Assembly: GCA_965248265.1 (NCBI GenBank)
Contig: CBDFJF010000002.1
Location: forward strand, 3,712,001 to 3,776,000
Length of the DNA: 64,000 nucleotides
Origin: Candidatus Latescibacterota bacterium
GTDB lineage: Bacteria > Latescibacterota > UBA2968 > UBA8231
Reading direction: 5' to 3'
Part shown: positions 26,747 through 64,000 of the stretch, in pieces
How positions within the stretch are numbered: position 1 is the first letter of the stretch
Layout of the letters: every line of letters begins with the position of its first letter
The notes under the pieces: generated by a model
What the model was told of the DNA's origin: nothing
Databases searched by the model: none
The model's input: only the letters and a program-made list of their open reading frames with translations
Made by a program: the position numbers and the translations under genes

Positions 26747-27936
26747 TCAGTGCTCGTCCCTCGTCGACCCTATGGCGGTCGCGTTGCGTTCGATCTCGGC
26801 ATATTGCTTGTTGACATACACCATGAAAAACCCCAGGAGCACGAACACGATGGCGGATTGACTCAACTGCAAAGCCGCGTTGAACCCGGTGGATTCTTCG
26901 AGAGCGAGAGCCGACAGGCCGAGCCAGACCGTCACCACGTAAATGACGAGGACGGCGCCGCGGCGACCGATACGCAGATCTTCGAGACGGTGATGGATGT
27001 GGTCGCGGCCGGTGAACTCCAACCAGGAACGCACGCTGCGAACCTGACCGCTCTTGACGCGCATCCAGGTCGTGAACGTCATGTCGAAGATCGGCACGCC
27101 CAGAATGAGTACGGGAACCGCCAGGCGCACGGCATGGTCGCTTGCCCATTCACCCATCACCGCGATTCCGGCCACCATGAAACCGAGGAAGGTGCTGCCC
27201 CCGTCGCCGAGAAAGATGGATGCTGAACGCCTCAAAGGAAAATTGAAGACCAGAAAACCCAGGCAGGCCCCGACCAGCGGCAGCGCCAGAAACCCCATGT
27301 CGGCCTGTTGATTGAACAGGGCGACGAGTCCGAAAAACACAAGGTTGATGCAACACGACCCAGCGGCGAGCCCATCCATCCCATCGAGGAAGTTAATCGC
27401 ATTGGTAATGCCGATGACCCACACCGCCGTCAACACCCATTCCCCGACCATGCCCCATGGCCCCTCTGGGAGAAAACTGATCACGACGCCGTAGTGAATC
27501 AAAATAACCACCGCCATGATCTGCGAGAGCAGCTTGATTGGAGCCCGCAGATCAAACACATCGTCGATTACGCCGACGATGAGCATGAGGGTTCCACCAA
27601 GAGCCACACCTTTCAAGGGGTCGGTGAATTCAAAATTACGCAGCACGGTAACGGCAAACGCGATGTGATGGCAACGCCACCCAGCAACGCCGTCGCCTTT
27701 CCGTGAGCCTTGCGTCCCCGGGGCACGTCCAGAATATCCAGGCGATGCGCCGCCCAATGGGCGATCGGCGTAACGACATAACCGATTCCAACCGACAACA
27801 GCAGCAGGTATGCCCAGCGCAAGCCCGAGGCATTCAACAGGACCCTGGCCTCGTTGCTGAGCATGAACAGGACGAACAGAAACACGACAGCCCGGTCGAC
27901 GTTCAGGATGGGAGGTCCAGTCCTATCAGGCGTCAT
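26747..27936 (-). pseudogene. WecA/TagO-like undecaprenyl-P GlcNAc-1-P transferase split by a 1-bp frameshift near 27666
   Basis: 5' ORF 27613-27936 ends ...RKAHGKATALLGGVAI. 3' ORF carries IAFAV...GVIDD...NAINFLDGMDGLA...FLGDGG...DHIHHRL. Real pseudogene or sequence error. Confidence 0.85.
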
Positions 27937-29015
27937 GAGGCCGCTCCCCGACTCAGCATGACGGCTTGTTGAACCCCCTCGATGACCCGTTTCGCTGCGC
28001 CGTCGTCAAGCGTCGGGTAAAGGGGCAACGATACATCCGCCTCATAGGCTCTGGTGGTCTCGGGAAACGCGGCATCATTCAGGCCGAGCTCTCGGTGCAA
28101 AGGAGAGTTCACAGGAGGTCGAGCCTGGATACCTCGGTCCTCGAGCGCTGCGATGAGTTCTGATCCCGTTTTCTCTCCAGCATCAATGACATAGCGGTAG
28201 TAGATGTGACCGGTTTCCGTCGGCGGAGTCTGTACTGAGGCATCCAGTGCGCGAGAATAACGACTCGCCAGATTTCGGCGACGCTGGATGAAATCTGGGA
28301 GCTGCCGCAACTGGACACGGCCGATCGTCGCGGCCAACTCTGTCATTTTACAGTTGTATCGCACGCCATTGGCGGGCAATCCATCATATTCGCGCATACC
28401 TCGCAGCCGCGCCGCCATACCATCATCGTCCGTGAGAACCATACCTCCTTCTCCTCCCGAAGAGATCACCTTCGTGGCGTAGAACGAACAGACAGCAAGC
28501 TCGCCGAGGGCTCCCGCCGATATGCTACCACAATGACTCCCCAACGACATTGCACAATCCTCGATGATCGGCAATCCCAGGGCAGCGAACGCCTTCACAT
28601 CCTGTGTGAGGCCAAACATATGCGGTATGACGATGGCCCTCGAGTTTGGTGTCAGACAACGTTTGACGCGAGAGGGTTCGATGTTGCGGGTACGAGAATC
28701 GATGTCGCAGACCACCGGTATGGCGCCAGCCGCTCTTGCCGCATGCAACAACGCCCCGCACACATAGCTGGGGACGATGACCTCATCGCCAGGGCCGGCT
28801 CCAAGAGCAAGTATTGCCAACTGCAAGGCGCAGGTACCCGATGAGACGGCAATGCCGTGACGTTTGCCGACCACCGCTGCCACCTCCACCTCGAATGCCG
28901 CTACCTCGTCTCCTTGAGCCAGCTGCCCGGACATCAGCACGCGGGTGGCTGCTTCGACTTCAAGCTCGCCGAAGCTCGGCTTGGAGTGGGGTATGGGTCC
29001 CCCCCCACCCTTCAT
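27933..29015 (-). CDS. DegT/DnrJ/EryC1/StrS sugar aminotransferase
   Basis: SSGT, IEDCA, SFYATK (PLP Lys), GEGG, SLPLYP. Confidence 0.92.
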   Translation of the reverse strand: MKGGGGPIPHSKPSFGELEVEAATRVLMSGQLAQGDEVAAFEVEVAAVVGKRHGIAVSSGTCALQLAILALGAGPGDEVIVPSYVCGALLHAARAAGAIPVVCDIDSRTRNIEPSRVKRCLTPNSRAIVIPHMFGLTQDVKAFAALGLPIIEDCAMSLGSHCGSISAGALGELAVCSFYATKVISSGGEGGMVLTDDDGMAARLRGMREYDGLPANGVRYNCKMTELAATIGRVQLRQLPDFIQRRRNLASRYSRALDASVQTPPTETGHIYYRYVIDAGEKTGSELIAALEDRGIQARPPVNSPLHRELGLNDAAFPETTRAYEADVSLPLYPTLDDGAAKRVIEGVQQAVMLSRGAAS

Positions 29016-30154
29016 CGATAGAACCCGTGTACCTGCTCGACTACGTGATCGATCTGGTCGACCTCGAGTTCGGGATACATCGGCAATGAAAGGATCTCAT
29101 CGCAGATCGCCTCGCACCGTGGGAAACTCCCCGGTCCATGGCCCAGGAATCGATAGGCTGGTGTTAGATGAAGGGCATTCGGGTAATGGACCGCCGTCTG
29201 GATCCCCGCCTGCGACAATGCAGCCGCAAGCTCATCGCGTCTGGGCGCCCTGATCACATAGAGGTGGTAGACATGGTGGGCGTAGTCCGCCTCGACAGGC
29301 AAGATCAGCATGTCGAGATCAACCAACCCCTCCCTGTACTGGGCGGCGGCGGCCCTTCGCCCATTATTCCAGTCATCCAGGTGCCGGAGCTTGACCTCGA
29401 GAATGGCTCCTTGTAATCCGTCCATCCTGTGGTTGTAACCCAGTTCGTCGTAGACGAATTTTGCCCCAGGTGTCATGCCGTGATTGCGCAGTCTCCGGAG
29501 TCGTGCATTCAGCCCGTCGTCGTTGCTCGTTATGCCTCCCGCATCACCGTAGGCCCCCAGATTCTTGCCTGGGTAGAAGCTGAAACAACCCAGGTTTCCC
29601 ATCGAACCGGCCCGCCTGCCATTGTAGCTGGCACCCTGGGCCTGCGCGGCATCCTCGACGACGGCAAACCCATGCTTTGCTGAGAGGGCGAGTATCGGAT
29701 CCATGTCAGCAGTCTGCCCGTACATGTGAACGGGGATGACTGCCCGCGTCCGCGCGGTCACACAATCACCTACGTGCTCCACATCCAGGGTGTAATGCTC
29801 TTCATCGATATCGACGAACACGGGACGGGCTCCAACCTCGCAGATGGCCTCTATCGTGGCCCCAAAGGTGTGTGGAGTGGTTATCACCTCATCCCCTGCC
29901 CCGATATCGAGCGCCTTCAGCGCCAGGGATAGGGCATCTGTACCATTGCTAACTCCGATGCAATGCGAAACGCCGCAGTACTGTGCGAAGCTGGCCTCGA
30001 AGGCGGCAACGGATGGACCGAGGATGAACGCACACGAATCGATGACGCCGCTGATGGCGCTGTCGATCTCCTGTTTGATCATACCATACTGCACCTTCAA
30101 ATCCGTGATCGGCACTTCCAACGACCGAGGCTTTTCTACCATGGTCTCGTTCAT
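29012..30154 (-). CDS. DegT/DnrJ/EryC1/StrS sugar aminotransferase
   Basis: SNGTDAL, PVHMYG, EDAAQA, SFYPGKNLGAYGDAG, HVYHLY. Confidence 0.94.
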   Translation of the reverse strand: MNETMVEKPRSLEVPITDLKVQYGMIKQEIDSAISGVIDSCAFILGPSVAAFEASFAQYCGVSHCIGVSNGTDALSLALKALDIGAGDEVITTPHTFGATIEAICEVGARPVFVDIDEEHYTLDVEHVGDCVTARTRAVIPVHMYGQTADMDPILALSAKHGFAVVEDAAQAQGASYNGRRAGSMGNLGCFSFYPGKNLGAYGDAGGITSNDDGLNARLRRLRNHGMTPGAKFVYDELGYNHRMDGLQGAILEVKLRHLDDWNNGRRAAAAQYREGLVDLDMLILPVEADYAHHVYHLYVIRAPRRDELAAALSQAGIQTAVHYPNALHLTPAYRFLGHGPGSFPRCEAICDEILSLPMYPELEVDQIDHVVEQVHGFYR

Positions 30155-30795
30155 ACGTCCTCTCCCTCCTCATCCAGAAACATCATAAAATGGCGCATGG
30201 CGACGAAGCCCTCAGCATAGGTAACTCTGCCCTGAATGCCGCGAAAATTCGCCGCGGATTGGGCTATGTCCACGATCGTCATGCTCTCGATATTCGTCTT
30301 GCTGACCTGCGATGAATGCGCCTGCAGAGCGGCCAGCTTCTGATGTATGACGGGGCCGATGTTGGCGAAAACAGTCGGGTTGAAATCGCGAGATGAGAGG
30401 CCCTCGAAAAATAGCAGGTTGGCCACAGAGCGCGCGGCGACAACCACGGCGCGGGCAATCTCCCGATGATCCTGATGGGTGTCTTCACCGTAGTGGGTGT
30501 AGACTGAATCCGCCTTCGTCTGTATTACGATCTCCTCGATCTTCATGATCGACTCACGGTTGCATTCGAATCGGGTGTCTGAGTACCCGAGAAAGAACAC
30601 GTCCTCCGCTCCGATTATCTTGGCCGCTGCCAGCTGCTCCTCTCTCCTGAGAGAGCCGTCGCCGCCTTCACTCCCGTCGGTGACCACGGCGAGAAACACC
30701 TGATCCCCTCGCTGAACGTGCTTGATCAGTGTTCCGGCACAACCGTACTCCAGATCGTCCGGATGAGCTCCGATCGCCAGAATCCTCACTGCCAT
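30151..30795 (-). CDS. PIG-L family N-deacetylase
   Basis: GAHPDDLE, HQDH. Confidence 0.9.
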   Translation of the reverse strand: MAVRILAIGAHPDDLEYGCAGTLIKHVQRGDQVFLAVVTDGSEGGDGSLRREEQLAAAKIIGAEDVFFLGYSDTRFECNRESIMKIEEIVIQTKADSVYTHYGEDTHQDHREIARAVVVAARSVANLLFFEGLSSRDFNPTVFANIGPVIHQKLAALQAHSSQVSKTNIESMTIVDIAQSAANFRGIQGRVTYAEGFVAMRHFMMFLDEEGEDV

Positions 30796-30823
30796 GTCTC
30801 CCTGAGTTTCCCCGTGTATCGCT

Positions 30824-31522
30824 TCATGACGGTACGTCTCGGCGGCCCTGTCGCAGAATCTCGAGACTGCGGGGGCCGCAGTTCAGGGCAAGGTCAAGGG
30901 CCGAGAGGTGCGACTCGAATGTGCCGAATAGTTGGTCGTACGAAGGGTGCTCGTATTCCTGAAAAATAACTTTGATACGCGCGCGAGCAAAACGCTCAAC
31001 ATCCATGTAGTTACGACCATCCGCGCCCGCCAGATAGACGTCAGCCCCGACCGCGCGACACAGATCGATCAGACGCTGGGTGGGCTCATCCTCAGCATCC
31101 AACTCGGAGGCCCAACGCATCGGAGTCGCGATGCCGAATGCCCCGCGCAGCCACTCGATGGAAGCGCGATTGACATCAGAGAGGCGCTCCCATTCGCCGT
31201 CATACAGCGCTCGCACGTTGCCTTCGTGCTCTTTCCAGAATGCCGCCTTCGCATAGTTCGTGATCAATGCCTGCCAGTGCTTGTTGCGCCAGTTGGCGCT
31301 GTCGGTGACGCGAACCTCTTCAATGCGGGCAGGAAATTGGTAGGTCACCGGGACCGTCAGCCACTGAGCTCCCTGCGCAGTCTTTATGCGATTGCGGTTC
31401 TGCCACTCGTTTTTCTTGTACTGAACGGTATCCAGCAGAATGAAGCAATCAGCAGAGTCCATCTTGTCGAGATAGCCCAGCCAGGGCATGAACTGAGGCT
31501 GATGAATGGCGACCGTCGTCAT
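30824..31522 (-). CDS. WbqC-family protein (putative aminoacyl transferase for sugar)
   Basis: IHQPQFMPWLGY, NRNRI, WLTVPV, LSALDL. Confidence 0.9.
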   Translation of the reverse strand: MTTVAIHQPQFMPWLGYLDKMDSADCFILLDTVQYKKNEWQNRNRIKTAQGAQWLTVPVTYQFPARIEEVRVTDSANWRNKHWQALITNYAKAAFWKEHEGNVRALYDGEWERLSDVNRASIEWLRGAFGIATPMRWASELDAEDEPTQRLIDLCRAVGADVYLAGADGRNYMDVERFARARIKVIFQEYEHPSYDQLFGTFESHLSALDLALNCGPRSLEILRQGRRDVPS

Positions 31523-32997
31523 CAACCGCTGACAAAGATGGGATTGGCGGTCAGCCGCGATCCGCGACTGGCCGCCATCAGGCGGTAGTAAAGACGCTCG
31601 CCAGCGTCGACCTGCGCGTCCACGTGCTCGAACTCCAATGGTGTAATCCCTTCCACCTGCGCAACCACCTGCGTGTGCCCATCACCGTCCCCTCGAATCA
31701 AGCGCACGTGGACCCGATCCTCGCCACCATCGAAGCGCCCGATCTCCACCGCAATCCTGGCCACACCAGCAGACAACAAACGCTCTCCCATGACCGCCGT
31801 GCCCGTGTTCGTCACCGCCTCGAACCGGAGTAACTGCAGGGCCTCATCACCGCCACGAACAGCATACATCCTGCCCTCCCGCATGGCGTCGAGGACCGCC
31901 GACCGAGTGCGCTCGCGAACCAGGAAAACCGTCAGGATGTCGTGGATGTACCCGCCTGGTTCCTGGACGTGGTAATCGATGTCACCGGTTCCCCAGATCG
32001 GCCGTTGCCGTTGGCCGCTCAGGTATTGGCTCAGCGCCTGGTCCCACTCCCGACCCGGATCGGTAGCTGTGATCTGATCCGCGTACAGCGCAGCAAATCC
32101 AGTATATCCCGATGTCTCAACAAGATCTTCCGCGTGGGACGAAGTTTCGCTGGCCACGCTGATCAACCCACCGAAAAATGAGCGTGGCTCAATCGTCGAC
32201 CTCGCCTCGGGATGAGGCCAGAACACCATACCACCCCGCTGTTCGACATGATCGATGTAATTCTGATAGGGCGCGCTGCCCAGGTCCCCGCTATAGGCAT
32301 CCATCACCGCAACCTTTAGCGGCTGGCCGCTGAAGACATCGGCCAGGCACAGTAATGATACGGCCCCGATACCGACACGGAGCCGCCGTCCGCTACCCAA
32401 CACCAAGGCATAGGCCAACCCGGCCAGTGGCCACAGCGACAGCCACCCCTGCCACTGGTCGATCCATGCGGCGTCACTGCCGAGTACGGGCAACGAGGCG
32501 TATTCTTCGGCACTCTGCAAACCGATAGCGATCAAGTGCTTGTTCCAGTTCACGAAACGCCACGAGAGCGAGGCCAGTTCAATATCCCAAAAGTAGAATG
32601 GAGCAGACTCGACCCCATCAATGAGGATCAAGGACTCGTGCTCGGCGTTCAGACGATCGATCTCTGTCAGGTATGCATCGATTGTCTCGTCCGTCAGTAG
32701 GGCTTTTCTGGTCTCGGAATAACCAATCAAGTTTCGAAGAAAAGGCAACCCATAGCTGACTTGCAGCACGTCATCATCCGTGAGTACCAGTACTTCGACA
32801 CCGTGGTCGAGCGCGCGTCGAGCAATCGTGTCCAGGCTTTCCTCGCCCGTACTGAACTCCGAGTGGATGTGCATGGCACCGCGCAGCTGAATGAAGCCGT
32901 CATCGTGGGACCCGGCCTCCCCCCCTTTTGCCGTCGATACCGTCACCAGGAAAACGGCGGCACAAGCAACCGTCACGCTGTGCGTCGTCACAGACAT
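31522..32997 (-). CDS. Exported, membrane-anchored PHP-like metallohydrolase
   Basis: Signal-like N-terminus, MHIHSEFS, LTDDD, GVE, KHL, internal TM pair, WPHP, DIDYH. Confidence 0.65.
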   Translation of the reverse strand: MSVTTHSVTVACAAVFLVTVSTAKGGEAGSHDDGFIQLRGAMHIHSEFSTGEESLDTIARRALDHGVEVLVLTDDDVLQVSYGLPFLRNLIGYSETRKALLTDETIDAYLTEIDRLNAEHESLILIDGVESAPFYFWDIELASLSWRFVNWNKHLIAIGLQSAEEYASLPVLGSDAAWIDQWQGWLSLWPLAGLAYALVLGSGRRLRVGIGAVSLLCLADVFSGQPLKVAVMDAYSGDLGSAPYQNYIDHVEQRGGMVFWPHPEARSTIEPRSFFGGLISVASETSSHAEDLVETSGYTGFAALYADQITATDPGREWDQALSQYLSGQRQRPIWGTGDIDYHVQEPGGYIHDILTVFLVRERTRSAVLDAMREGRMYAVRGGDEALQLLRFEAVTNTGTAVMGERLLSAGVARIAVEIGRFDGGEDRVHVRLIRGDGDGHTQVVAQVEGITPLEFEHVDAQVDAGERLYYRLMAASRGSRLTANPIFVSG

Positions 32998-33006
32998 CCT
33001 ACACCG

Positions 33007-34176
33007 TCAGGCAGCATTGTCGACCAGCTCATCGTAAAGCAGCTCTATCTGCTCTACCATACTGTCGGCACTGTAGGCTTGCGCCCGCTTGTTTGCGGTT
33101 GCTGCGAACCGGGATCTCTCTGCGTCGTGATTCAACATACGCAGAACACCATCCGCCAGCTCTTGAGGCGCAGCCGGGGGCACCAGCAACCCCTCCTGCT
33201 CATTGCGGATCAGCTCCGGAATACCTCCCACGTTCGTGGCCACACAGGGCACCCCCGCGTACATCGCCTCCACCAGCGCCTTGCCCATGCCTTCGTTGAT
33301 AGACGGAAAGACGAAGACGTCCATGCCACCCAGAACCTCGGCTATGTCATCTCGCCACCCGGCGAAGACTGTATAGTTCTCAACCCTCAACTCCCGGGCC
33401 AGAGTTTCGAGTGCAATACGCTCCTCGCCATCGCCGACGAGCAACAGCCAGGCGTTGCCGAACCGGGTTCGTACCATGGCAAAGGACTCAAGTAGAACCC
33501 GGTGGCCCTTGATCGCCGTGAGTCGACCCAGGGAACCGATCACGATGCCATCAGGATCGATTCCAAGGTCGCCACGGATGGCGGTGCGGTCGCGCTTTGT
33601 GGCCCCGTTCTCGAAGGCAGAGAAATCGATTCCGCTGTGGATGACGCAAAAACGCTCGCGTGGCGCGATCCCAAAGCGAAGATGGTCCTCGAGGTCCGCC
33701 TGTGTCAGTGCGATGACGCGGTCTGTAAAGCCAGCCACCCAGCGTTCAAGCCAGACGAACAGCTGCGTTATCACGGCGCCGTAATAGCCGTAGAACACAT
33801 GTCCGTGCGGCGTGTGGAGGATGCGCGGGACCCCCTCAAACCTCGCTGCCAGGCGACCCAGTATACCCGCCTTGGAGGTGTGTGTGTGAACGATGTCGTA
33901 GGTGTTGCTTTGCATGATTCGGCGTAGAGAGCGCAAGGCTCGCCAATCCGCCAGCGGGGCAACGGCACGTACCAGTTCGGGGATCTCGAAGAGAGCGACT
34001 CCAGACGCACGCGCCTCATCGAGGGTGGGTCCCGGATCACCCGCCGTCATCCCCACAGCCAGGTGGACTTCGAAGCGGCTCTTGTCGAGCCGAGCCACGG
34101 TCAACAGCGTGTTTTCTGCCGAGCCACCAGGATCCAGCCGAGTGATTACGTGCAAGACCCGAACGGGCACATTCAT
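33007..34176 (-). CDS. GT4 family glycosyltransferase
   Basis: GGSAE, HTHTSKAG, GRL..IKG, EGMGKALVEAM. Confidence 0.92.
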   Translation of the reverse strand: MNVPVRVLHVITRLDPGGSAENTLLTVARLDKSRFEVHLAVGMTAGDPGPTLDEARASGVALFEIPELVRAVAPLADWRALRSLRRIMQSNTYDIVHTHTSKAGILGRLAARFEGVPRILHTPHGHVFYGYYGAVITQLFVWLERWVAGFTDRVIALTQADLEDHLRFGIAPRERFCVIHSGIDFSAFENGATKRDRTAIRGDLGIDPDGIVIGSLGRLTAIKGHRVLLESFAMVRTRFGNAWLLLVGDGEERIALETLARELRVENYTVFAGWRDDIAEVLGGMDVFVFPSINEGMGKALVEAMYAGVPCVATNVGGIPELIRNEQEGLLVPPAAPQELADGVLRMLNHDAERSRFAATANKRAQAYSADSMVEQIELLYDELVDNAA

Positions 34177-35702
34177 GGAGCCGCCTTCGCCTTCTCCGAT
34201 TCGGAGTCCTCCATGTCGTCTGCGCCGCCGACAACCTCAGCCTCCTCAGCCCGCATGATGCCGGAGGCGCATACCACCAATCCAACAGCCAGCCAGAATG
34301 GCTCCATGATGCGGACGATGATGAAGGTGTTGGCGCCGACTGCATGGACCAACAGACCGACGGTTCCGGCCAGCAACCCGGCGGCAAGCCCTTTGAAGAG
34401 CGGATCCTTGGCCCGTTCGAACACATTGCGGGCCTCCCGAAAAACGCCTACAACCAAGGCACCGAAAGCCACCACTCCGAGCAATCCGGTTTCGGCCAGG
34501 ACCCGTGGGTACTGTGCATCCAGAAACTTGTAACCGGTTACTCCGTATCCCCAAATCGGGCTGTAGAGGGCGTCCGCAAAGGCACCCTGCCAGCTTTCCA
34601 GGCGCTGGGATGTCGAGGTGTCCAAACGAACGTCACCGACTTGGACCTGCGTAAGGTGGCTCTGCCTGCTCTGCCCCCAGGTATGGCTGATTCGATCTTT
34701 GACGGTTTGCGGCATAACGGCCACCCCGAGCGCGCTAATCGCAAAGAGGGCGATGATCATGACCAAACGTGTCCGCAAACTTTTGTTGAGCACGATGAAG
34801 GCTGCGTACACGAACGGGGCAGCCAGGTACGAGCCTCTCGATAGGGTTGCCAGGAAAGGCACAATGATCAACGTAAGCAACCCGATCAACCATATCCGCT
34901 GGGACCGTGTCCGCAGCTGCATGATAAGGCCCCCTGCCAGTGCCGCGATGAAAAGCAGATAGCCGCCAAGGGTATTCGGTTCGCCCTGTTCCCCCTCGAA
35001 AGGTGCGGCGACACGTTGCCCGGTCGGAATCTGCGCAATCGCGACGAAACACACGATCACGGCCGTCAGCAACATGGCCACCGTGAACCGTTTGATCTGT
35101 TCTCTGGTATGGATGTTGTTGGCGACGACGAAATAGATGACGAAGTACTCGATGTACTTCAGGACGAAGAAGAAAGCGGTAACGCCGGTTACACTGCCGA
35201 AGATCATGCCGAGGCTCGTCGCCAGAATGCATGCAGCCGTGTAATAACCGATGGGCCGGTTCAGGGCCGTACTGCGCACCAAGCCCAACTCCTTGTGCAC
35301 CGCCATGCGGGTGAGCCAGGCGAACGCCATGACGACAAGGAGCAGGTCTTCCGTGCGCAGGGTGACCCCTCGGCCAGCCGTGGTTCTGTTGGGATCGGAC
35401 AATCCCCCCACACCGAACTCCGGTGACAGCAGCATCGAGAACACGAGGACGTAGAGGCTGACTTCGGTATTGATAAAGCAGAGGATGAAAACGACGATTG
35501 CGATGACGAGTCCGGCCCCGATCTCGAACGGTAGTCCGGCCAGTGCGGCCGCAAGCACCAGGCACGCCACAAAGATGACAGCCAGCAGCGGCCCATGAGC
35601 CAGGTTCAGGCCATGGTTACCAGAGGAGGGGTGTTGCGGTGGCACGTTCGAGATGGCGTTCTCCTTCGATATACTGTCGCCGGGGTCATCGTCCGGCGTC
35701 AT
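34173..35702 (-). CDS. O-antigen ligase / Wzy_C family membrane protein
   Basis: About 12 TM helices, EPNTLGGY, TLSRG, periplasmic loop, SPIWGYG, ETGLLG. Confidence 0.85.
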   Translation of the reverse strand: MTPDDDPGDSISKENAISNVPPQHPSSGNHGLNLAHGPLLAVIFVACLVLAAALAGLPFEIGAGLVIAIVVFILCFINTEVSLYVLVFSMLLSPEFGVGGLSDPNRTTAGRGVTLRTEDLLLVVMAFAWLTRMAVHKELGLVRSTALNRPIGYYTAACILATSLGMIFGSVTGVTAFFFVLKYIEYFVIYFVVANNIHTREQIKRFTVAMLLTAVIVCFVAIAQIPTGQRVAAPFEGEQGEPNTLGGYLLFIAALAGGLIMQLRTRSQRIWLIGLLTLIIVPFLATLSRGSYLAAPFVYAAFIVLNKSLRTRLVMIIALFAISALGVAVMPQTVKDRISHTWGQSRQSHLTQVQVGDVRLDTSTSQRLESWQGAFADALYSPIWGYGVTGYKFLDAQYPRVLAETGLLGVVAFGALVVGVFREARNVFERAKDPLFKGLAAGLLAGTVGLLVHAVGANTFIIVRIMEPFWLAVGLVVCASGIMRAEEAEVVGGADDMEDSESEKAKAAP

Positions 35703-35939: not shown

Positions 35940-38900
35940 CTATATGTCGACGGAGGCGTTCTGAACCTCGATGACATCGGCGATATAGTGACGGGCTTCA
36001 GCAGCGGTCTCGAAAGCTCCAACCTGGAGAGAGATTGCGGCGTCTGTTGTTCGCATGTGTGCCGCATGGGTCAGGTCACCCAGGTGTTCGAGAACCTTGT
36101 TGGCGTGCTCACGGTGCCCGTACCGCGCCAGTTCCACTGAATACGGCAATCGCAAAACCGAGAACTGATCGACAATCTCTCTGTGCTGCAAATCGCTGGC
36201 ATGGCGGAAGGCGTCATCCCAGCTGGCGAAACGTCCGATGATGAGACGTTCGAATAGCTTCCCTTTTATTCTCTTCTGAGCCAGGAAGGCGCTTTCGCCT
36301 CCCTGCCGGAGCTCATCCACGGCTTGTGCCGACCACTCACTCCCAGGCGCATATGAAGCAACCCTAATCACGTACGGCTCCGCGTCTTCGACCACAATGC
36401 GGACACTGTTTACGTGAGCAGTCTGGTCTGGAACGACTGAATTCAGCGTATGGTTACCCCTTAGGTTGTGTGAGGTAACCGATTCTTCCATAGTGATATC
36501 GAGACTTCCCATTTCCGCTGCCTGAAGCGATGGGGCCGAATCAGGGACTCCGGTAGCTTCGACGTAGTAGCTGCCAGACTGTCTGCTCATGTCTGTTGCG
36601 GCGGCGACGATCCCGGGAGCGATCCCCGGAGCGGTCCCCAGAGCGTCCTCGACATCGTCCTCGACCGCCGGAGATACGGAGCCAAAGAGCACCGGAAGCA
36701 ACCCGAGCGGTTTCTTCAGGTAGCCGCTCTGCCATAGCAACCCCAGTCCCGTCACAACAATGGCCAGGTAAGCAAGAATCCTCTTTACTGTACTTCGGGG
36801 CGAAGACTGGGACATATCACCCAATCGAACTGGGGCCGTTGTCCGATTCTGGCGTCCTCCCTCTCCGCCCAGGTCGACCGCCGGTTCGTCGGCCTCCACA
36901 TCCAGACCGAATTTTTTCTTCCACCGTCGGGTTGTATCCTGGACTCGTTGCGCGAAAGGCCTCTCTGGAGCCGTGACCTCGCTGCCATAAGCATAGTAGG
37001 CGTTGTACCCCATATCGTGGAAGTCGGAGCTCATTTCGGCGCGGATACCGTTGAGGACAACTCCGAGTAGTTCGATCTCAACGCTGCGCAGCAGACTCGT
37101 CGAGCGCTTGAGCGAAGTCCGAGCAACTTCCCCAGCCTTGTACACCACCAGCGTGCCATCCACCTTTTTGCCGAGGATTGCCGCGTCCGTCACGTGCAGG
37201 ACGGGGGGTGAATCGATCAGGACGACATCGTATTCCTCTTTGATTTCGTCGATGAATTCAGCCATGGCCCTCGAATTGAGCAGTTCTGTCGGATTCGGAG
37301 GTATGGAGCCGCTGGTGATGATGTGAAGATTACCGATGCCCTGAGTCTGGAGTATGTCCTCCATTCCCATGCCACCAGTGACGATATCGGTCACCGTACG
37401 AATCACATCTCGCCAGGCATGATTGCCGACTATGACCTCCGTTACGCCAGGTTCCTTGTTGAGGCCAAACACGCGGGCGATGGATGGTTTGCGTAAATCG
37501 CAATCAACGAGCAACGTGCGTTTACCCAGTTGAGCCATTGTCATTGACAGATTTGAGATCGTCGTGCTCTTGCCTTCAAAGTGCATGGAACTGGTCACCA
37601 TCAGGCACTTGGCACCCTTCTCGACCGTGACGAATTCGATATTCGTGCGGAGCGTCCGGTAGGTCTCCGCCAGTGTGGATTGTGGGTCAAAATAGGTGAC
37701 CAGCTGGGCCTTGCGTTGCATCAACCGATCATCGGATACGTCGACATCGCGCCGCATCAACGATGCCCGCACATCATCCACATTGATGAAGGGGACGATT
37801 CCGACAACCTGCATGCCGGTGTATTCCTGGACGTCCTCGATCGTGCCGATGGAGGTATCCAGCGTCTCTGCCACGACGGCAAACACGACCCCGAGGATCA
37901 ACCCCAGCAACAAGCCCATGATCGCGCGTTTGAGCGGATGGTGGGGATTGATCGGACGTGTCGGCGTGGTTGCCCATTCGAGGACGGTTACTTCCTCCAC
38001 CTTGTCAGCCTCACGGATCAACGCCTCCTGGTAGCCCTCTTCCAGGGCCGTAACCACTTGTTGGCGCATCGCCACTTCCCGCTCAAGCCGGGACAATTCC
38101 AATCCCATCGAGGGCAGCTGGCTGTAGGAACCCCGCAACGAGGACAGCAGCTTACGTTCGGCAGCCAGGTCTTTCTGTAGCGCCTGCTTGCGTTGTTTCA
38201 ACTCGCCCAGAAGACTTTCGCCAATCTGGTCGATTTGTACCTGGAGTTGAAGTATCGTCGGATGATCTTCGGTGTATTGGACGAGCAGTCCATCGCGTTG
38301 CAGCTTCAGACTGTTCAGCTGTCGACTCATGGAGACGAACGCCTCGCCGACCCTGATCCGGGACACCCCCTGCAGGGTTTTCTCGGATAGGCCGTTTTGA
38401 CCTTCCATCTCAGCGGCCATGTCACTGATGATGCCCAGATCCTGCTGCAGCCGTTGGCTGTCGCGTTCAGCACCAGTGATCTGTTGTAGATTGACGCTGG
38501 CCTGCGACTCCAGCGAGATCAAATCGGTTTTCTCGCGATATGCACGCACAGCGTCTTCAGCCTCTGCCAGCGCTGAGCGGGCACTGCCGCGTTGTCCCTC
38601 CACGAACTCGCGGTGCGTAACCGCCTGGTGATTCTTTAAATCGTGATCGTAGTCGCGATAGACCCCCGCAATCGTGTTGGCCAGATCACGAGCGCGTGGG
38701 GGACTCAGATCCGTAGTCTCGATGGAGATGATGTTGGTGAATCCCTCTTGCGAGGTGTTGATGCGGGTATACAACCCGAGCAGGACAAGCGCAGAATCAT
38801 CTGCAGTGGTCGCTTGAGTGAACAGCCCGAGCTTGCTGCCGGTGCGCTTGAGAACGGGATGGCTGGTGATGATGGCACGTTGGGTCTCGATCTCATCGCC

Positions 38901-39116
38901 CGAGTTGTAGGCGATAGTCTGCAGATAGAGGCCCGTCAGATTCTGACGAAGGCTGATCTGTACTTTGGCGACAGCGTTGTAGAGGGGGTCAGGCTGCCAG
39001 ACAGAAGCGATCAGAAAACTGAAGAAGCACAGTAGAACGCCCGTGAAGAATACGATACCCTTGCGGCGGCGCAGGATGCGCCAGTAGTCCCTCAGGGTAA
39101 CTTCGTACTGTGCCAT
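35940..39116 (-). CDS. wzc: Wzc-type polysaccharide co-polymerase/tyrosine autokinase with extra TM and SPOR-like C-terminus
   Basis: TM1, coiled coil, TM2, ETYRTLRTN, EGKST (Walker A), VDCDLRKP, LIDSPP, YNAYYAY Tyr cluster, then TM3 and two SPOR-like repeats. Confidence 0.88.
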   Translation of the reverse strand: MAQYEVTLRDYWRILRRRKGIVFFTGVLLCFFSFLIASVWQPDPLYNAVAKVQISLRQNLTGLYLQTIAYNSGDEIETQRAIITSHPVLKRTGSKLGLFTQATTADDSALVLLGLYTRINTSQEGFTNIISIETTDLSPPRARDLANTIAGVYRDYDHDLKNHQAVTHREFVEGQRGSARSALAEAEDAVRAYREKTDLISLESQASVNLQQITGAERDSQRLQQDLGIISDMAAEMEGQNGLSEKTLQGVSRIRVGEAFVSMSRQLNSLKLQRDGLLVQYTEDHPTILQLQVQIDQIGESLLGELKQRKQALQKDLAAERKLLSSLRGSYSQLPSMGLELSRLEREVAMRQQVVTALEEGYQEALIREADKVEEVTVLEWATTPTRPINPHHPLKRAIMGLLLGLILGVVFAVVAETLDTSIGTIEDVQEYTGMQVVGIVPFINVDDVRASLMRRDVDVSDDRLMQRKAQLVTYFDPQSTLAETYRTLRTNIEFVTVEKGAKCLMVTSSMHFEGKSTTISNLSMTMAQLGKRTLLVDCDLRKPSIARVFGLNKEPGVTEVIVGNHAWRDVIRTVTDIVTGGMGMEDILQTQGIGNLHIITSGSIPPNPTELLNSRAMAEFIDEIKEEYDVVLIDSPPVLHVTDAAILGKKVDGTLVVYKAGEVARTSLKRSTSLLRSVEIELLGVVLNGIRAEMSSDFHDMGYNAYYAYGSEVTAPERPFAQRVQDTTRRWKKKFGLDVEADEPAVDLGGEGGRQNRTTAPVRLGDMSQSSPRSTVKRILAYLAIVVTGLGLLWQSGYLKKPLGLLPVLFGSVSPAVEDDVEDALGTAPGIAPGIVAAATDMSRQSGSYYVEATGVPDSAPSLQAAEMGSLDITMEESVTSHNLRGNHTLNSVVPDQTAHVNSVRIVVEDAEPYVIRVASYAPGSEWSAQAVDELRQGGESAFLAQKRIKGKLFERLIIGRFASWDDAFRHASDLQHREIVDQFSVLRLPYSVELARYGHREHANKVLEHLGDLTHAAHMRTTDAAISLQVGAFETAAEARHYIADVIEVQNASVDI
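36608..36643. repeat. 3 x 12-bp imperfect tandem repeat in the wzc linker
   Basis: cgatcccgggag cgatccccggag cggtccccagag; encodes LGTAPGIAPGI. Confidence 0.75.
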
Positions 39117-39128
39117 GATCGGGTCTGA

Positions 39129-39824
39129 TCAGCTGCGTCGTCCGGTAGCCCTTCGAGGCCGCCGTCCGTATGCGGGCGGCTCGGGCCGGTCCGAATCATC
39201 CTCCGCGGCCGATTTGGGCGATGCAGTCTTCGGGGAACCAAGGGGCGGTGTCTGAGACTCAGCGCGATCAGGACCGGCCTCTCGGAGACCGTGTACCTGT
39301 CCGACGAACTCCGACGGAATCTCGCGCGTGAGCACGACTTCGCCACGAGCGAAAAACTCGATATCCCCGTCATCATAGGCCTTTTTTGCCAGGATCTCAG
39401 CTACACACGGGGTACCAACCTCCCGGCTTCTGGACTTCGCCGAGTCGAAATCCATCGACAGATGCAGGTACGAGCGATCGACCGGATGGATGCCGTTTGC
39501 CTCCATCCGGCTGCCGGCCTTGGCCGTCGTCCCCATGTAGAGCTTCTCTGGAGGATCCATCGGATCGCCATCCATTTCGACAAAAAAACTATGCCCGTAC
39601 AGGGCGCGAATTCTCTCGTCCACAATTTCGAACCGGTGTTGGCTGGTGTCAGCCACGAGATCTCGCACGGCCTCGTCCGTGGCTTCGTCATAGCGCTCCT
39701 GCACAACCTCGACGACCTCATCGAGAGGTATGAAGCCGAACTCATCGATGTTGAGCCCGAATTCATCGGGTCGATGACGTAGAATCAGCGACAGTAGCTT
39801 TGATATGCGGCTGCGATCAACCAA
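39129..39824 (-). CDS. kptA: RNA 2'-phosphotransferase (Tpt1/KptA)
   Basis: SKLLSLILRH, RFE, IRALYGHS, R..LHLS. Confidence 0.85.
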   Translation of the reverse strand: MVDRSRISKLLSLILRHRPDEFGLNIDEFGFIPLDEVVEVVQERYDEATDEAVRDLVADTSQHRFEIVDERIRALYGHSFFVEMDGDPMDPPEKLYMGTTAKAGSRMEANGIHPVDRSYLHLSMDFDSAKSRSREVGTPCVAEILAKKAYDDGDIEFFARGEVVLTREIPSEFVGQVHGLREAGPDRAESQTPPLGSPKTASPKSAAEDDSDRPEPPAYGRRPRRATGRRS

Positions 39825-39925: not shown

Positions 39926-40378
39926 TCACTTCCATTTCTGCCGGTACTTGTCGATGGCCTCACCGATTGCGGAATCCGACAGGGCCAGTATCTGCGCGGC
40001 CAGCATGGCGGCATTACGCGCGTTATCGATACCAACTGTCGCCACCGGAATCCCGGGTGGCATTTGGACGATGCTGTAGAGCGAATCAGCTCCGCCCAGA
40101 CTGGAGGCCGCAATCGGCACGCCGATTACGGGAAGCGTCGTATGAGCGGCCAGCACCCCCGGCAACGCAGCAGCCAAACCAGCTCCGGCGATCAACACCT
40201 TGAGCCCCCGTTTGGCGGCACCGGTTGCGTACTCGGCCGTGCGCTGTGGATTGCGGTGGGCGGAGCATACCTGGGTCTCGAACCCAACGCCCAACTCATC
40301 GAGTACCCCTTCGGCCTTCTTCATGACGGCCTCATCCGAGGAACTGCCCATGATGATTCCGACCTCAACTCCTGCCAA
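39926..40378 (-). CDS. purE: N5-carboxyaminoimidazole ribonucleotide mutase
   Basis: [39 protein letters not shown]. Confidence 0.95.
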
Positions 40379-40438: not shown

Positions 40439-41587
40439 CTAAGCCATTTTCTTGCGCAAGATCGCCGGATATTCGAGGTATTCCCGAGGCATCACGCCCG
40501 TCTCCTCCTCTTCCTGCACAATCACCGGCTCCTCTATCTCGCCGCGGGTGCGAGCTGTGCGCGAGCGCACCGATACCCTCGACGGCTGGGCAGCCGGCTG
40601 TTCGTCCGTGGCCTCGTAGCGGCCTTCCTTGTTCATGTAAAAACCCGTAGCGATGACCGTGACCCGCATCTCATCCACCAGCGACTCATCGATGACGGTA
40701 CCAAAAATGATATTGGCCTCGTCGCCAGCAGCGCTCTGGATGACTGAAGCCGCTTCATTGGCCTCGAACAGCGTCAAATTCGATCCCGCCGATATATTGA
40801 TCAACGCGCCCTTGGCCCCCTCGATGGAAATATCTTCGAGCAGCGGGCTCTTGATCGCCTTTTTCGCCGCTTCGATAGAGCGATTCTCGCCTCGATGAGA
40901 GCCCATGCCGATGATGGCATCGCCGCCCTCCGTGATCACCGTCTTCACGTCATTAAAATCCAGGTTGATCATACCCGGCACCGTGATCAGATCGGCGATT
41001 CCGCGAGTCGCCTGCAGGAGCACATCGTCCGCCTTGGCGAAGGCCTCCTCCAGCGTCGTGTCACGTGAGCATACCGACAGCAAGCGCTGGTTTTTGATTA
41101 CAATCAGCGTATCGACATGGTCCTGCAACTCGGCGATACCGGCCTGGGCATTGCGCATACGTGGGAACCCCTCAAACTGGAAAGGCTCGGTTGCGATACC
41201 GACGGTGAGAGCCCCTTGATCCCTGGCGATCTCAGCCACCACCGGAGCGGCCCCCGTGCCGGTGCCACCTCCCATGCCAGCCGTGATGAACACGAGGTCC
41301 GTGTCCACCAGCTGCTCGGATACCTTGTCCCGATCCTCTTCTATGGCTTGCCTGGCGATTTCCGGCTTGGCACCGGCTCCCAACCCGCGCGTGATGCTCT
41401 CACCGATGCATATACCGACACCGGCAGACGACACCTCCAAATCCTGGTTGTCCGTGTTCACGGCGATGAAGTCCACCCCGTGCATTCCCGAGGCCACCAT
41501 GCGGTTTATCGCATTGCCGCCCGCACCGCCTACTCCGATTACCTTGATGCTCGCTTTTTGCTCAAAGTCTATGATCTTGAAAGTCAT
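40439..41587 (-). CDS. ftsZ: Cell division protein FtsZ
   Basis: GVGGAGGNA, GMGGGTGTG, INLDFND; SD AGGAGG before ATG 41587. Confidence 0.97.
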   Translation of the reverse strand: MTFKIIDFEQKASIKVIGVGGAGGNAINRMVASGMHGVDFIAVNTDNQDLEVSSAGVGICIGESITRGLGAGAKPEIARQAIEEDRDKVSEQLVDTDLVFITAGMGGGTGTGAAPVVAEIARDQGALTVGIATEPFQFEGFPRMRNAQAGIAELQDHVDTLIVIKNQRLLSVCSRDTTLEEAFAKADDVLLQATRGIADLITVPGMINLDFNDVKTVITEGGDAIIGMGSHRGENRSIEAAKKAIKSPLLEDISIEGAKGALINISAGSNLTLFEANEAASVIQSAAGDEANIIFGTVIDESLVDEMRVTVIATGFYMNKEGRYEATDEQPAAQPSRVSVRSRTARTRGEIEEPVIVQEEEETGVMPREYLEYPAILRKKMA

Positions 41588-41626
41588 TTCGCACAACCTC
41601 CTGGCTAGTCTGCAACGTCTCTGCCG

Positions 41627-61343: not shown

Positions 61344-62285
61344 TTAGGACGCCAGGCCGTCAACGCTGAAATAGCGAAAACCGGTATCGCAGAGAACAGT
61401 CACCAAACACGCATCGGCGGCCAAGGCCTCACCGATCCTCAGTGAGGCCACCATGTTCGCCCCGGACGAAGGGCCCAGCAACAGACCTTCCTCACGAGCG
61501 AGTCGCCGTGTGCATTCGAAGGCTTCCTCGTCTTCGACCGTCACGATCTCATCGATCACCTCAGTCTCCAACACCTCAGGAACGAAGCCAGCACCGATGC
61601 CCTGGATGCCGTGCAACCCGGGCTCACCTCCTGACAGCACCGGCGAGCGCGCCGGCTCCACCGCGACGATGCGAATACCGGTCACTTCCTGCTTGAGCAC
61701 GCCACCCACGCCCGTGATGGTACCTCCTGTACCCACACCCGCGACAAAGGCGTCGACTCGTCCGTCCGTCGCCTGGAGGATTTCGCGAGCCGTCGTTTCT
61801 CGATGGACCTGAGGATTGGAAGTATTGCGAAATTGCTGTGGCATGAAGGTGCCCGCCGGATCCGCGTCCTTGATCTGCTGTGCCTGGCTGATCGCCCCCG
61901 CCATGTCATCGACTCCCGGGGTCAGGATGATGCGGGCACCATAGGCCGCCATCACTGAAATGCGCTCGGCGCTCATGCTGTCTGGCATCGTCAGCACCAG
62001 CTCATAACCGAGCGCGGCGGCGGCCATGGCCAGCGCGATGCCTGTATTGCCGCTGGTTGGCTCGACGATGACCATGCCGGGCTTGAGCGCACCCATGCTC
62101 TCGGCGGAGCGGATCATGCTGATGCCGACCCGGTCCTTGACGCTACCCGCGGGGTTGAGCGCCTCCAGCTTACCCAGAATCGAACACCCGCTGGCTGGCA
62201 GCATCCGCGTAAAACGCACCATCGGCGTATGGCCGATGGTACCCAGAATCGAATCGACGGTCAGTGAATGCTGGGCCTCCGTCAA
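61344..62285 (-). CDS. cysK: Cysteine synthase A
   Basis: NPAGSVKDR, TSGNTG, GVGTGGT, IQGIGAGF. Confidence 0.93.
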   Translation of the reverse strand: MTEAQHSLTVDSILGTIGHTPMVRFTRMLPASGCSILGKLEALNPAGSVKDRVGISMIRSAESMGALKPGMVIVEPTSGNTGIALAMAAAALGYELVLTMPDSMSAERISVMAAYGARIILTPGVDDMAGAISQAQQIKDADPAGTFMPQQFRNTSNPQVHRETTAREILQATDGRVDAFVAGVGTGGTITGVGGVLKQEVTGIRIVAVEPARSPVLSGGEPGLHGIQGIGAGFVPEVLETEVIDEIVTVEDEEAFECTRRLAREEGLLLGPSSGANMVASLRIGEALAADACLVTVLCDTGFRYFSVDGLAS

Positions 62286-63445
62286 TCGGACCCTCCGTCA
62301 GCGTCCCCATCTTCTGACGAACCCTCCTCCGTCGTTTTTCCAGCTGTCCCTGGAAGAGTGCGAATGAAGTCGCCCGATCCCGTCGCTTCGCCGGTATCCA
62401 GGCGCAGACCACCACCTGTCGTGTAGAGATCCCGGTAGGTCGCCGGCAGCAACAGTATGCCCAGCAGGGGCTCGATCTTGGTGATCACATCGTTGACGTC
62501 TCCGATGAAGCTGCGCGGCACGTATACGATATCGTCGTTCCGCAGGGCGATATTCTGTTCGAAGTCGCCGCGTCCGACCAGTCTGGCCAGATCCATTCGG
62601 TACATCTTGGTCACGCCGTCATCCACGCGTATCAGCCGCACGTCATCCCGCAGGGCGTTCGGCGTCAATCCCCCTGCCTGACTGACGGCCTCGAGAATAC
62701 GCGCATTCTCCGGAAACATGTAGACGTTGGGCCGCTCCACCTCGCCCAGTATCACCACCTTCTTGCTGCGCAGATTCGTGCCGCGCACGATGAGGATGTC
62801 ATCGCCCTGGAGAACGACGTTGTGTTCTTTGTTTCCCGTGTTCAGGACCTTTTGGATGTCCAATTCATACGTGCGGCCTCCGCGTATCAGCTGGACCTCG
62901 TTCAGCTGGGCCTCGGGACTGCTACCTCCAGCCACAAGAATCAAATCGAGAACGGTCGTCTTCGTCTTGAGCGAATAGCGTCCCTGACCGGACTGCTTCA
63001 CACCACGATCCAAGGTCTGAACCGCGCCCAGCAAGGAGACGATCTTGCTTTTGTGCTCGAGGACGTCCACGTCGATTTTTGGATTCCGCAGAAAACGACT
63101 CAACTCACGGCTCAGCAGATCGTCCAGTTCCGTTGGTGTCAGACCGGCTGCTTGAACGTTCTCGACCAATCCAAAAGAGACATTGCCGTCTGGACGAACA
63201 GTCACGGTTTCACTGGTCACGTCTATGTCGCGGAGCGTAATCTCCAATTCATCTCCCGGGCCCATGACGTATTCGGGAAAACCGGAGCGCTCTGTATAGG
63301 ATTGTCGTTGCGGATCTTCCGGTGGAGTCTCAAAGAGTCTCGGCACCGTCGGCGGCGGCGCCTGTGCTGTGGTCACCGACGGCAATGACGAGCCACAGGC
63401 ACTGAGGAACAGTCCGATTGCCGCTACAATAGTCGAATGCCACAT
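62282..63445 (-). CDS. Wza-like polysaccharide export lipoprotein with SLBB repeats
   Basis: Lipobox FLSA-C, YVMGPGDEL, VRPDG, GEVERP, DIVYVP. Confidence 0.88.
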   Translation of the reverse strand: MWHSTIVAAIGLFLSACGSSLPSVTTAQAPPPTVPRLFETPPEDPQRQSYTERSGFPEYVMGPGDELEITLRDIDVTSETVTVRPDGNVSFGLVENVQAAGLTPTELDDLLSRELSRFLRNPKIDVDVLEHKSKIVSLLGAVQTLDRGVKQSGQGRYSLKTKTTVLDLILVAGGSSPEAQLNEVQLIRGGRTYELDIQKVLNTGNKEHNVVLQGDDILIVRGTNLRSKKVVILGEVERPNVYMFPENARILEAVSQAGGLTPNALRDDVRLIRVDDGVTKMYRMDLARLVGRGDFEQNIALRNDDIVYVPRSFIGDVNDVITKIEPLLGILLLPATYRDLYTTGGGLRLDTGEATGSGDFIRTLPGTAGKTTEEGSSEDGDADGGSD

Positions 63446-63464
63446 AGGTCTCACGTTGGGTGCA

Positions 63465-64000
63465 TTAACCTGACTTTGCCAGCATGCCCAGCTGCCGAGA
63501 ACCGCGCAGCAGCAGCTGAAGAGCCCGCAGTCCGTAAGCCAAAGGTATGAGTACACGGGGAATGCGGGGGAAAACCTGCATCAGGACGTCCGGTCTGGGA
63601 AACAGAAACTCCCAGAGGAACGACGCCTTGGCCGCCATGCCATCGCAACTGAACGACCAGAGGATTTCACCCCACTCCGATTCGGGCCGGGTGGCTGACA
63701 GACGCCCAAGCAGGAAGCTCTCCGCCAACCCAAGCCTCGGAAGATCAGCCGTTGTCGGCGCTCCAGACACGGGGTGCGACAGGTGGTCCTCGAGGTAATG
63801 AAGGCAATAGTGAATGGACTTCGTCGAGTTGCACTGCAATGCCTTACGCTCGACCGCCTGCCAGTCGGGCCGGGCTTTCATGAGCAGGTGAAAATCGACA
63901 AACCAGGTGAGTCGCCGAAAGCTGTGCCGCAGGGAATGCAGGGCTGTGTAGAGGATCGCCTCTTCCACACCCAATACCAGGGCAGTGAATCCCGGCGCCG
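63465..64000 (-). CDS. Uncharacterised nucleotidyltransferase family protein (NTP_transf_5-like), C-terminal part
   Basis: LHSLRH...LTWFVD...DW motif. The frame is open to the window edge. Confidence 0.55.
   Translation of the reverse strand, partial: APGFTALVLGVEEAILYTALHSLRHSFRRLTWFVDFHLLMKARPDWQAVERKALQCNSTKSIHYCLHYLEDHLSHPVSGAPTTADLPRLGLAESFLLGRLSATRPESEWGEILWSFSCDGMAAKASFLWEFLFPRPDVLMQVFPRIPRVLIPLAYGLRALQLLLRGSRQLGMLAKSG

Follow-up and report, generated by a model that had tools for sequence, protein, structure and literature searches.

A Wzc-type co-polymerase and tyrosine kinase extended by a third membrane helix and two SPOR-fold domains: a candidate wall-tethered polysaccharide export system in Candidatus Latescibacterota

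Wzc and Wza make up the textbook machine for the export of capsule and exopolysaccharide in Gram-negative bacteria. Wzc is an oligomer, an octamer in the solved Escherichia coli structures, and to our knowledge both the passage of the Wzc-Wza machine through the peptidoglycan layer and its positioning there are unsettled in the field. Here we describe a Wzc-type gene from a Candidatus Latescibacterota genome (assembly GCA_965248265.1, contig CBDFJF010000002.1). It lies in a stretch of 64,000 nucleotides (positions 3,712,001 to 3,776,000 of the forward strand), which we call the window and whose own numbering is used throughout. The gene occupies 35940..39116 on the minus strand (1058 codons) and encodes a protein of 1058 amino acids (aa), in which a co-polymerase and bacterial tyrosine kinase (BY-kinase) is followed by a third transmembrane helix (TM3) and a tandem SPOR tail. 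An earlier note, made from the DNA sequence alone, had read the protein in this way and had proposed that the tail targets the co-polymerase to the division septum. Our analysis bears out the fusion and suggests that the tail may tie the Wzc ring to peptidoglycan.

For SPOR domains, one report (10.1101/2022.07.01.498525) states that all characterised members bind denuded glycans and localise to the septum, and gives a range of 1-10 uM for the binding by E. coli SPOR domains. A study of the RlpA SPOR-glycan complex (PMC6895207) describes a highly conserved glutamine, at profile position 8 on strand 1 (RlpA Q270, FtsN Q251), that bonds to the lactyl group of N-acetylmuramic acid and the N-acetyl group of N-acetylglucosamine. 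A basic patch on the SPOR sheet is also named (RlpA R309, equivalent to FtsN R285). According to the same study, most of the RlpA-glycan contacts are made by main-chain atoms, and an N-deacetylated glycan was not retained by RlpA in simulation, with the glutamine hydrogen bond lost. Mutagenesis cited there identifies FtsN Q251, S254, W283, R285 and I313 as residues whose mutation lowers septal localisation.

A Wzc-type protein that continues past its tyrosine cluster

The sequence supports assigning the N-terminal 715 aa to the Wzc-type PCP-2a BY-kinases. A hydropathy scan of the whole protein (Kyte-Doolittle, 19-residue window) gave three peaks, at aa 21-39 (2.56), aa 398-416 (2.83) and aa 776-794 (1.70). 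The first of these, TM1 (39000..39056; this and all other parts of the protein are on the minus strand), follows a basic N-terminus with six lysine or arginine residues in aa 1-20, and the second corresponds to TM2 (37869..37925). Between them lies the periplasmic co-polymerase (PCP) domain (aa 40-397, 37926..38999), which was recognized by the chain-length determinant model TIGR03007 (115.7 bits), by Pfam GNVR (aa 343-415; 35.1 bits, above the cut-off of 27.7) and by Pfam Wzz (aa 5-94; 23.4 bits, slightly below the cut-off of 25.5). The start codon call is sound because the N-terminus MAQYEVTLRDYW is common to 13 of the 15 aligned homologues; the other two, P0015 and P0016, differ by one residue.

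The cytoplasmic BY-kinase domain (aa 440-700, 37017..37799) scored 182.4 bits against the subfamily model TIGR01007, for which the cut-off is 108, and Pfam AAA_31 matched the P-loop kinase region at approximately aa 506-714 with 51 bits. The kinase motifs are all present: Walker A (FEGKST, 513-518), Walker A′ (LLVDCDLRKP, 535-544) and Walker B (YDVVLIDSPP, 629-638). Solved chains of Wzc, CapB, Etk, BceF and VpsO all align with the window protein. For the Wzc chains the E-values ranged from 1e-38 to 1.7e-44, and the alignments placed the three Walker motifs and the tyrosine cluster in register. The cluster, YNAYYAY (aa 704-710, 36987..37007), aligns with the tail of solved Wzc, and its residues Y707 and Y708 are nearly invariant among 15 full-length homologues. 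The Wzc-type autokinase identity given in the earlier note is thus borne out by the TIGR01007 score and by the solved Wzc structures.

Seven solved full-length Wzc sequences, with chains of 720-738 residues, align only to aa 705-714 of the query, where their own residues 711-719 stand. Canonical Wzc therefore ends at the tyrosine cluster. In the window protein the cluster is internal, and the frame runs on for 344 aa, comprising TM3 with an invariant WQSG, a disordered linker and two SPOR-fold domains. The strings quoted for this extension in the earlier note were found where it had placed them: the transmembrane string at aa 780-795 (nucleotides 36732-36779) and the two SPOR-like strings at aa 915-969 (36210-36374) and aa 992-1041 (35994-36143).

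Just after the cluster there is a basic segment, PERPFAQRVQDTTRRWKKKFG (aa 717-737, 36906..36968), which is conserved in the homologue alignment. TM3 follows (aa 776-796, 36729..36791). In an AlphaFold model of aa 770-1058, built with 26 aligned sequences, TM3 is a helix at model residues 7-27, with a predicted local distance difference test score (pLDDT) of 95 and 85 by block; together with the hydropathy scan, this supports the third hydrophobic helix. The outer end of TM3 carries the conserved motif WQSGYLKKPLGLLPVL (aa 795-810, 36687..36734), which includes the WQSG and was defined from the 15-homologue alignment and from column counts in 26 modules. Across the 15 full-length homologues W795, S797 and G798 are invariant, and Q796 and Y922 nearly so. 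A linker of ~96 aa (aa 811-906, 36399..36686) comes next; it is rich in serine, alanine, valine and glycine, was modelled without secondary structure (pLDDT 40-54) and varies in length and sequence among the homologues. The chain ends with SPOR-fold unit 1 (aa 907-989, 36150..36398) and unit 2 (aa 992-1055, 35952..36143), joined by a conserved LRLPY (aa 988-992) and forming a fixed pair in the AlphaFold model.

The extension is shared by many relatives. Eight of them have open frames of 1013-1089 aa without a stop within the match. Of 168 surveyed genomes from the phylum, 43 carry the tail module, which occurs in 9 of the 14 families (E <= 1e-10; families numbered f1 to f14, with the window's genome in f1), and 31 of the 44 match rows lay in frames of 900 aa or more. 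Public genome records supplied 16 further loci, eight of them labelled Candidatus Latescibacterota and two repeating G001 and G005. The earlier note had asked for the same architecture in other genomes and had held that the fusion would fall if no SPOR fold were predicted or if relatives had a stop after the tyrosine cluster. The architecture recurs, a SPOR fold is predicted and the relatives read through. On this sequence comparison we regard it as confirmed that this is a single real gene whose extension is beyond chance.

One locus, G024, was considered as a natural split into a Wzc gene and a separate TM-SPOR gene. Reading all three frames instead revealed a one-base frame shift before the tyrosine cluster (L013:9300-9560, minus strand), and the second frame contains the cluster and continues through TM3 to one SPOR domain with the canonical glutamine. 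The break could be a sequencing error or mark a pseudogene. The frame of G162 is broken as well. In the databases the relatives bear generic names ('capsular exopolysaccharide synthesis family protein', 'P-loop NTPase' or 'hypothetical protein'), and a literature search, with subscription journals outside its coverage, found no paper describing SPOR domains in a Wzc or co-polymerase.

SPOR fold and topology of the tail

Both C-terminal units have the SPOR fold. Each was modelled as beta-alpha-beta-beta-alpha-beta with pLDDT above 93; when unit 2 was modelled alone the mean pLDDT was 79, and no fourth strand of three or more residues was modelled in this unit. The models were compared with 48,161 chains by a structural method independent of Foldseek, and for each unit SPOR domains made up four of the top five matches. 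Unit 1 was closest to 6ozd_B (Z 9.6) and the RlpA SPOR domain 6i0n (Z 9.2, 76 residues aligned, root-mean-square deviation (rmsd) 2.6), then to CwlC (7.6), DedD (7.2) and DamX (5.8). Unit 2 was closest to the RlpA SPOR domain (Z 9.6, 68 aligned, rmsd 1.9), then to 6ozd_B (8.8), CwlC (7.3), DedD (6.6) and DamX (6.5). The two SPOR-like stretches pointed out from the letters are therefore SPOR folds in the model, with SPOR structures as their nearest neighbours.

Profile searches agree. Pfam SPOR (PF05036, cut-off 21) scored 30.9 bits on the C-terminal 178 aa, in two stretches, 24.2 bits on the whole protein and 38-45 bits in relatives. When aa 770-1058 were searched exhaustively against 1.84 billion representatives, only 48 clusters were recovered at E <= 0.001; 24 of these were scanned, and Pfam SPOR was found in 20, with up to 221 bits (P0019, P0022, P0023 and P0029 being without it). 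A profile of the family matched solved CwlC at 8.6e-7 (unit 2) and DedD at 4.6e-5 (unit 1), and FtsN weakly (0.094). Other results speak against the SPOR assignment: a genome-wide PF05036 search missed the window gene, Foldseek ranked another fold first (below), and with phmmer the C-terminal 178 aa found nothing meaningful among solved chains (best E 0.99). A 13-row profile built from unit 1 alone found nothing significant there (best E 1.3; FtsN 1.9). When the SPOR region of P0049, a more canonical relative, was used in a word-index search, only P0049 itself came back, a result that has no bearing on fusions elsewhere.

Foldseek had ranked the tandem ACT domains of aspartokinase first for the 289-aa tail model. 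We dropped this assignment because the template modelling scores were only 0.14-0.34 and because the Foldseek-independent comparison puts SPOR domains on top; with an rmsd of 10-12, the ACT match is read as a generic likeness of two ferredoxin-like units.

Within the family, one subclade (L015, L026 and P0012-P0014) has a shortened unit 2 from which the first helix and the second strand are missing. Unit 1 is thus the constant part of the tail.

The N-terminus is basic, the kinase must be cytoplasmic and TM3 is the third pass of the membrane; for these reasons the tail would be periplasmic. A second argument comes from natural forms that lack the kinase: G005 (731 aa; L015:2531-4726, minus strand), G010 (703 aa; L012:9355-11466, plus strand), G009 (715 aa) and P0011 (683 aa). 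G005, G010 and P0011 stand in the same place after ftsZ. All four keep the PCP domain, TM2, a short loop, TM3, the WQSG and the SPOR pair, and in G005 a PER...RRW..K.G segment resembling PERPFAQRVQDTTRRWKKKFG is present too. In G010, query aa 1-419 and 786-1058 were matched with ~45 residues between them, giving a TM2-loop-TM3 hairpin. As the kinase-less forms link TM2 to TM3 by only a short loop, the tail would lie in the periplasm. An extracytoplasmic SPOR tail and a cytoplasmic kinase, as the earlier note had predicted, fit this hairpin.

No separate dedicated BY-kinase gene was matched in the genomes of the kinase-less forms, where the only matches were ParA/MinD-like at 26-28% identity. 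The PCP-TM3-SPOR core is evolutionarily independent of the kinase. As judged from these natural variants, the conserved core is the co-polymerase with TM3 and SPOR, with both ends in one compartment, and the kinase is a losable cytoplasmic insert. P0043 (520 aa) lacks a co-polymerase part and combines a P-loop kinase-like domain, in which Walker A is intact, with one transmembrane helix and two SPOR units; it may be a truncated or separate-kinase form.

Proposed attachment to peptidoglycan and the alternatives

The reading we prefer, with a probability of roughly 0.5, is that of a peptidoglycan-tethered Wzc, in which the tail ties the Wzc ring to peptidoglycan through glycan binding. After the tyrosine cluster the chain would re-cross the inner membrane via TM3 and end in the periplasm with two rigidly joined SPOR-fold domains on a flexible tether. 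At ~96 aa, the linker would be long enough to reach the wall layer. With Wzc assembled as a ring, several tethered SPOR pairs would be available to bind peptidoglycan glycan strands and so to anchor the Wzc-Wza export machine on the sacculus.

A number of observations weigh against this reading. Pfam coordinates, and alignments to the glutamine of DedD and CwlC, put R918 at the glutamine position of unit 1 and E995 at that of unit 2. Among the 26 aligned modules, unit 1 has arginine in 13, histidine in four, glutamine in three, and lysine and leucine in one each, with a gap in four. Unit 2 has glutamate in 15, aspartate in four, glutamine and lysine in two each, and valine and alanine in one each, with one gap. 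The replacement is, on these alignments, a family trait, and the genome encodes two other SPOR proteins whose first SPOR domains keep the glutamine. At the strand-3 arginine position, unit 2 of the window protein has serine, with arginine in 17 of the 26 relatives. Because the ligand-contacting glutamine is replaced in both units, canonical denuded-glycan binding by the tail is uncertain. Taken singly, both units fall below the Pfam SPOR cut-off of 21 (17.5 bits for unit 1 and 18.6 bits for unit 2), a genome-wide PF05036 search at E <= 0.001 did not recover the window gene, and unit 2 is incomplete in some orthologues. Finally, TM3 is the weakest of the three hydropathy peaks, at 1.70, and the positive-inside rule does not decide its direction because two lysines follow it.

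The ligand site of unit 1 does appear to be partly kept. R957, on strand 3, is arginine in 25 of the 26 family members and aligns with an arginine of DedD, and also with that of FtsN, where the alignment is weak (E 1.9). In the numbering of the paper, the putative equivalents of R957 are RlpA R309 and FtsN R285.

Under the septal targeting proposed earlier, the SPOR pair would be specific for septal glycans denuded by amidases; the co-polymerase would thereby collect where the cell divides, and the assembly of polysaccharide would be coupled to septation. We consider this possible but on balance unlikely, and rank a plain wall tether above such strict septal targeting as the more likely of the two. 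The reported behaviour of characterised SPOR domains, all of which are said to bind denuded glycans and to localise to the septum (10.1101/2022.07.01.498525), speaks for it, as do the SPOR fold of both units, the strand-3 arginine kept in unit 1 and the one Amidase_3 gene of the genome.

The position of the gene in the chromosome also favours septal targeting. Directly upstream in the window, and on the same minus strand, lie kptA (39129-39824; RNA 2′-phosphotransferase, Tpt1 family), purE (39926-40378) and ftsZ (40439-41596), the last gene of the dcw (division and cell wall) cluster, which runs from mraW to ftsZ. The order ftsA-ftsZ-(purE)-kptA-wzc was found at every public locus but L028 (15 of 16), as well as in G008, G010 and G120, all of them of family f1. 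The likely outer-membrane partner gene, wza (Poly_export and SLBB domains; 62282..63556, minus strand), lies ~23 kb upstream of wzc on the far side of the dcw cluster. In five of five f1 genomes wza is 19-24 kb upstream on the same strand, so that wza and wzc-SPOR bracket the dcw cluster.

Two points stand against septal targeting: the glutamine is replaced in both units, and the ftsZ neighbourhood is found in one family only. At six loci of other families (G020, G024, G039, G040, G068 and G091) ftsZ was outside the fetched stretch, and at five of these wza is directly upstream of wzc, G068 having no wza match. The fusion thus predates the ftsZ neighbourhood, since other families carry it without ftsZ nearby and mostly with wza adjoining. 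The neighbourhood may be a single inherited rearrangement, and we treat the ftsZ adjacency as suggestive of septal function and not as evidence for it. The gene order described in the earlier note (ftsZ, purE, kptA and wzc, with the polysaccharide block downstream) is thus correct for the window, but the adjacency to ftsZ is confined to f1, and septal targeting, which had only been inferred, is correspondingly weakened.

A bolder form of the idea, which we think rather unlikely, is that this lineage couples polysaccharide export to division mechanically. A ring of SPOR pairs would dock Wzc-Wza on freshly denuded septal glycans, so that new poles would be coated as they form. The f1 chromosome, with wza and wzc-SPOR bracketing dcw, would mirror this coupling, and the conserved core would be a wall-docking co-polymerase, not the kinase.

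It is also conceivable, though we judge it improbable, that the SPOR-fold pair has a changed ligand and binds the exported polymer or a modified wall glycan. The tail would then act in chain retention, in length control or in hand-over to Wza. The polymer would be an amino-sugar polysaccharide, judging from the DegT, WbqC, PIG-L and WecA-like genes downstream (26747..35702, minus strand; in the order Wzy_C, GT4, a PHP/CehA-like open reading frame (ORF), WbqC, PIG-L, two DegT and WecA-like). We know of no SPOR domain with a non-peptidoglycan ligand, which counts against the proposal, and an arginine could still pair with the lactyl carboxylate. In its favour, the glutamine is replaced family-wide and kept in other SPOR proteins of the same genome. 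The PCP-TM3-SPOR core persists without the kinase, and the tail is therefore tied to the periplasmic co-polymerase function. In the RlpA study (PMC6895207), the N-deacetylated glycan loses its glutamine bond and unbinds in simulation, which suggests that this position tunes the choice of glycan. Against the proposal, most of the contacts described there are made by the main chain, and side-chain changes may therefore be tolerated.

The tail could instead be a protein-docking module with no glycan binding, whose role would be to recruit a partner or to regulate it, wall synthases and Wza being examples. The invariant WQSG next to TM3 suggests a conserved contact, but we consider docking as the role of the tail very improbable. 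That two genes were joined by an assembly or sequencing error, or that a chance frame follows the tyrosine cluster, is scarcely credible: the frame of G024 is broken just before the cluster, but only by a single-base shift beyond which TM3 and SPOR continue, the frame is uninterrupted in dozens of independent assemblies, and the extension is conserved and folds confidently in the AlphaFold model.

Neighbouring genes and comparison with known systems

Some further features of the window are recorded here. In every f1 locus checked, kptA is directly upstream of wzc-SPOR, a curious neighbour that has no obvious connection with either polysaccharide export or division. The PHP/CehA-like ORF of the downstream block (491 aa; 31522-32997, minus strand) has a weak PHP match (18.9 bits) and a CehA/McbA metallohydrolase match of 52 bits, which is below the cut-off. 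It is conserved in the cluster, stands directly after wzc-SPOR in G001 and could be a phosphatase partner of the kinase. An ORF of 870 aa (58705-61317, plus strand) combines a matrixin-type peptidase, beta-propeller repeats and an FlgD Ig-like domain, and one of 728 aa (14344-16530, minus strand) gave only weak esterase or alpha/beta-hydrolase matches.

The window protein and E. coli Wzc (7NHR, 9R62, 9EXO) share two transmembrane helices that flank a periplasmic Wzz/GNVR domain, a cytoplasmic P-loop kinase that has the Walker A, A′ and B motifs, and a tyrosine cluster after the kinase. Genes for Wza and for a Wzy_C-family protein are also present in the window's genome. The E. coli chain stops a few residues beyond the cluster, whereas the window protein continues for a further 344 aa. 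Against the E. coli Wzc equivalog model NF008568 it scored 198.8 bits, far under the cut-off of 1068, and the 23 kb between wza and wzc is a further difference from the E. coli system. A putative wall-binding module is built into the co-polymerase itself by way of an extra membrane pass, and is kept in some species without the kinase. This suggests that, in at least one phylum, attachment to the wall belongs to the working of the export machine, and the tandem domain of 150 aa offers a simple handle for its study.

In Streptococcus pneumoniae, CpsC and CpsD form a PCP-2b system in which capsule is made at the septum and the BY-kinase is linked with the division site. There the co-polymerase and kinase are separate proteins without a SPOR domain, and placement is thought to depend on protein partners. 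The analogy with CpsCD drawn in the earlier note is weakened by this difference, and the comparison does not support the same coupling to division for the window protein.

With FtsN, DamX, DedD, RlpA and the Bacillus subtilis CwlC, the tail shares the beta-alpha-beta-beta-alpha-beta fold, and for both units the five best structural matches include RlpA, CwlC, DedD and DamX. Also shared, by prediction, is an extracytoplasmic location, with a membrane anchor and then a long flexible linker preceding the domain. Unlike the window protein, none of these five belongs to a polysaccharide export machine. Two further differences lie in the SPOR units themselves, which form a fixed pair through the conserved LRLPY junction and in which the highly conserved SPOR glutamine is replaced, by arginine in unit 1 and by glutamate in unit 2. 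The replaced glutamine makes the tail a natural test case for the ligand specificity of SPOR domains.

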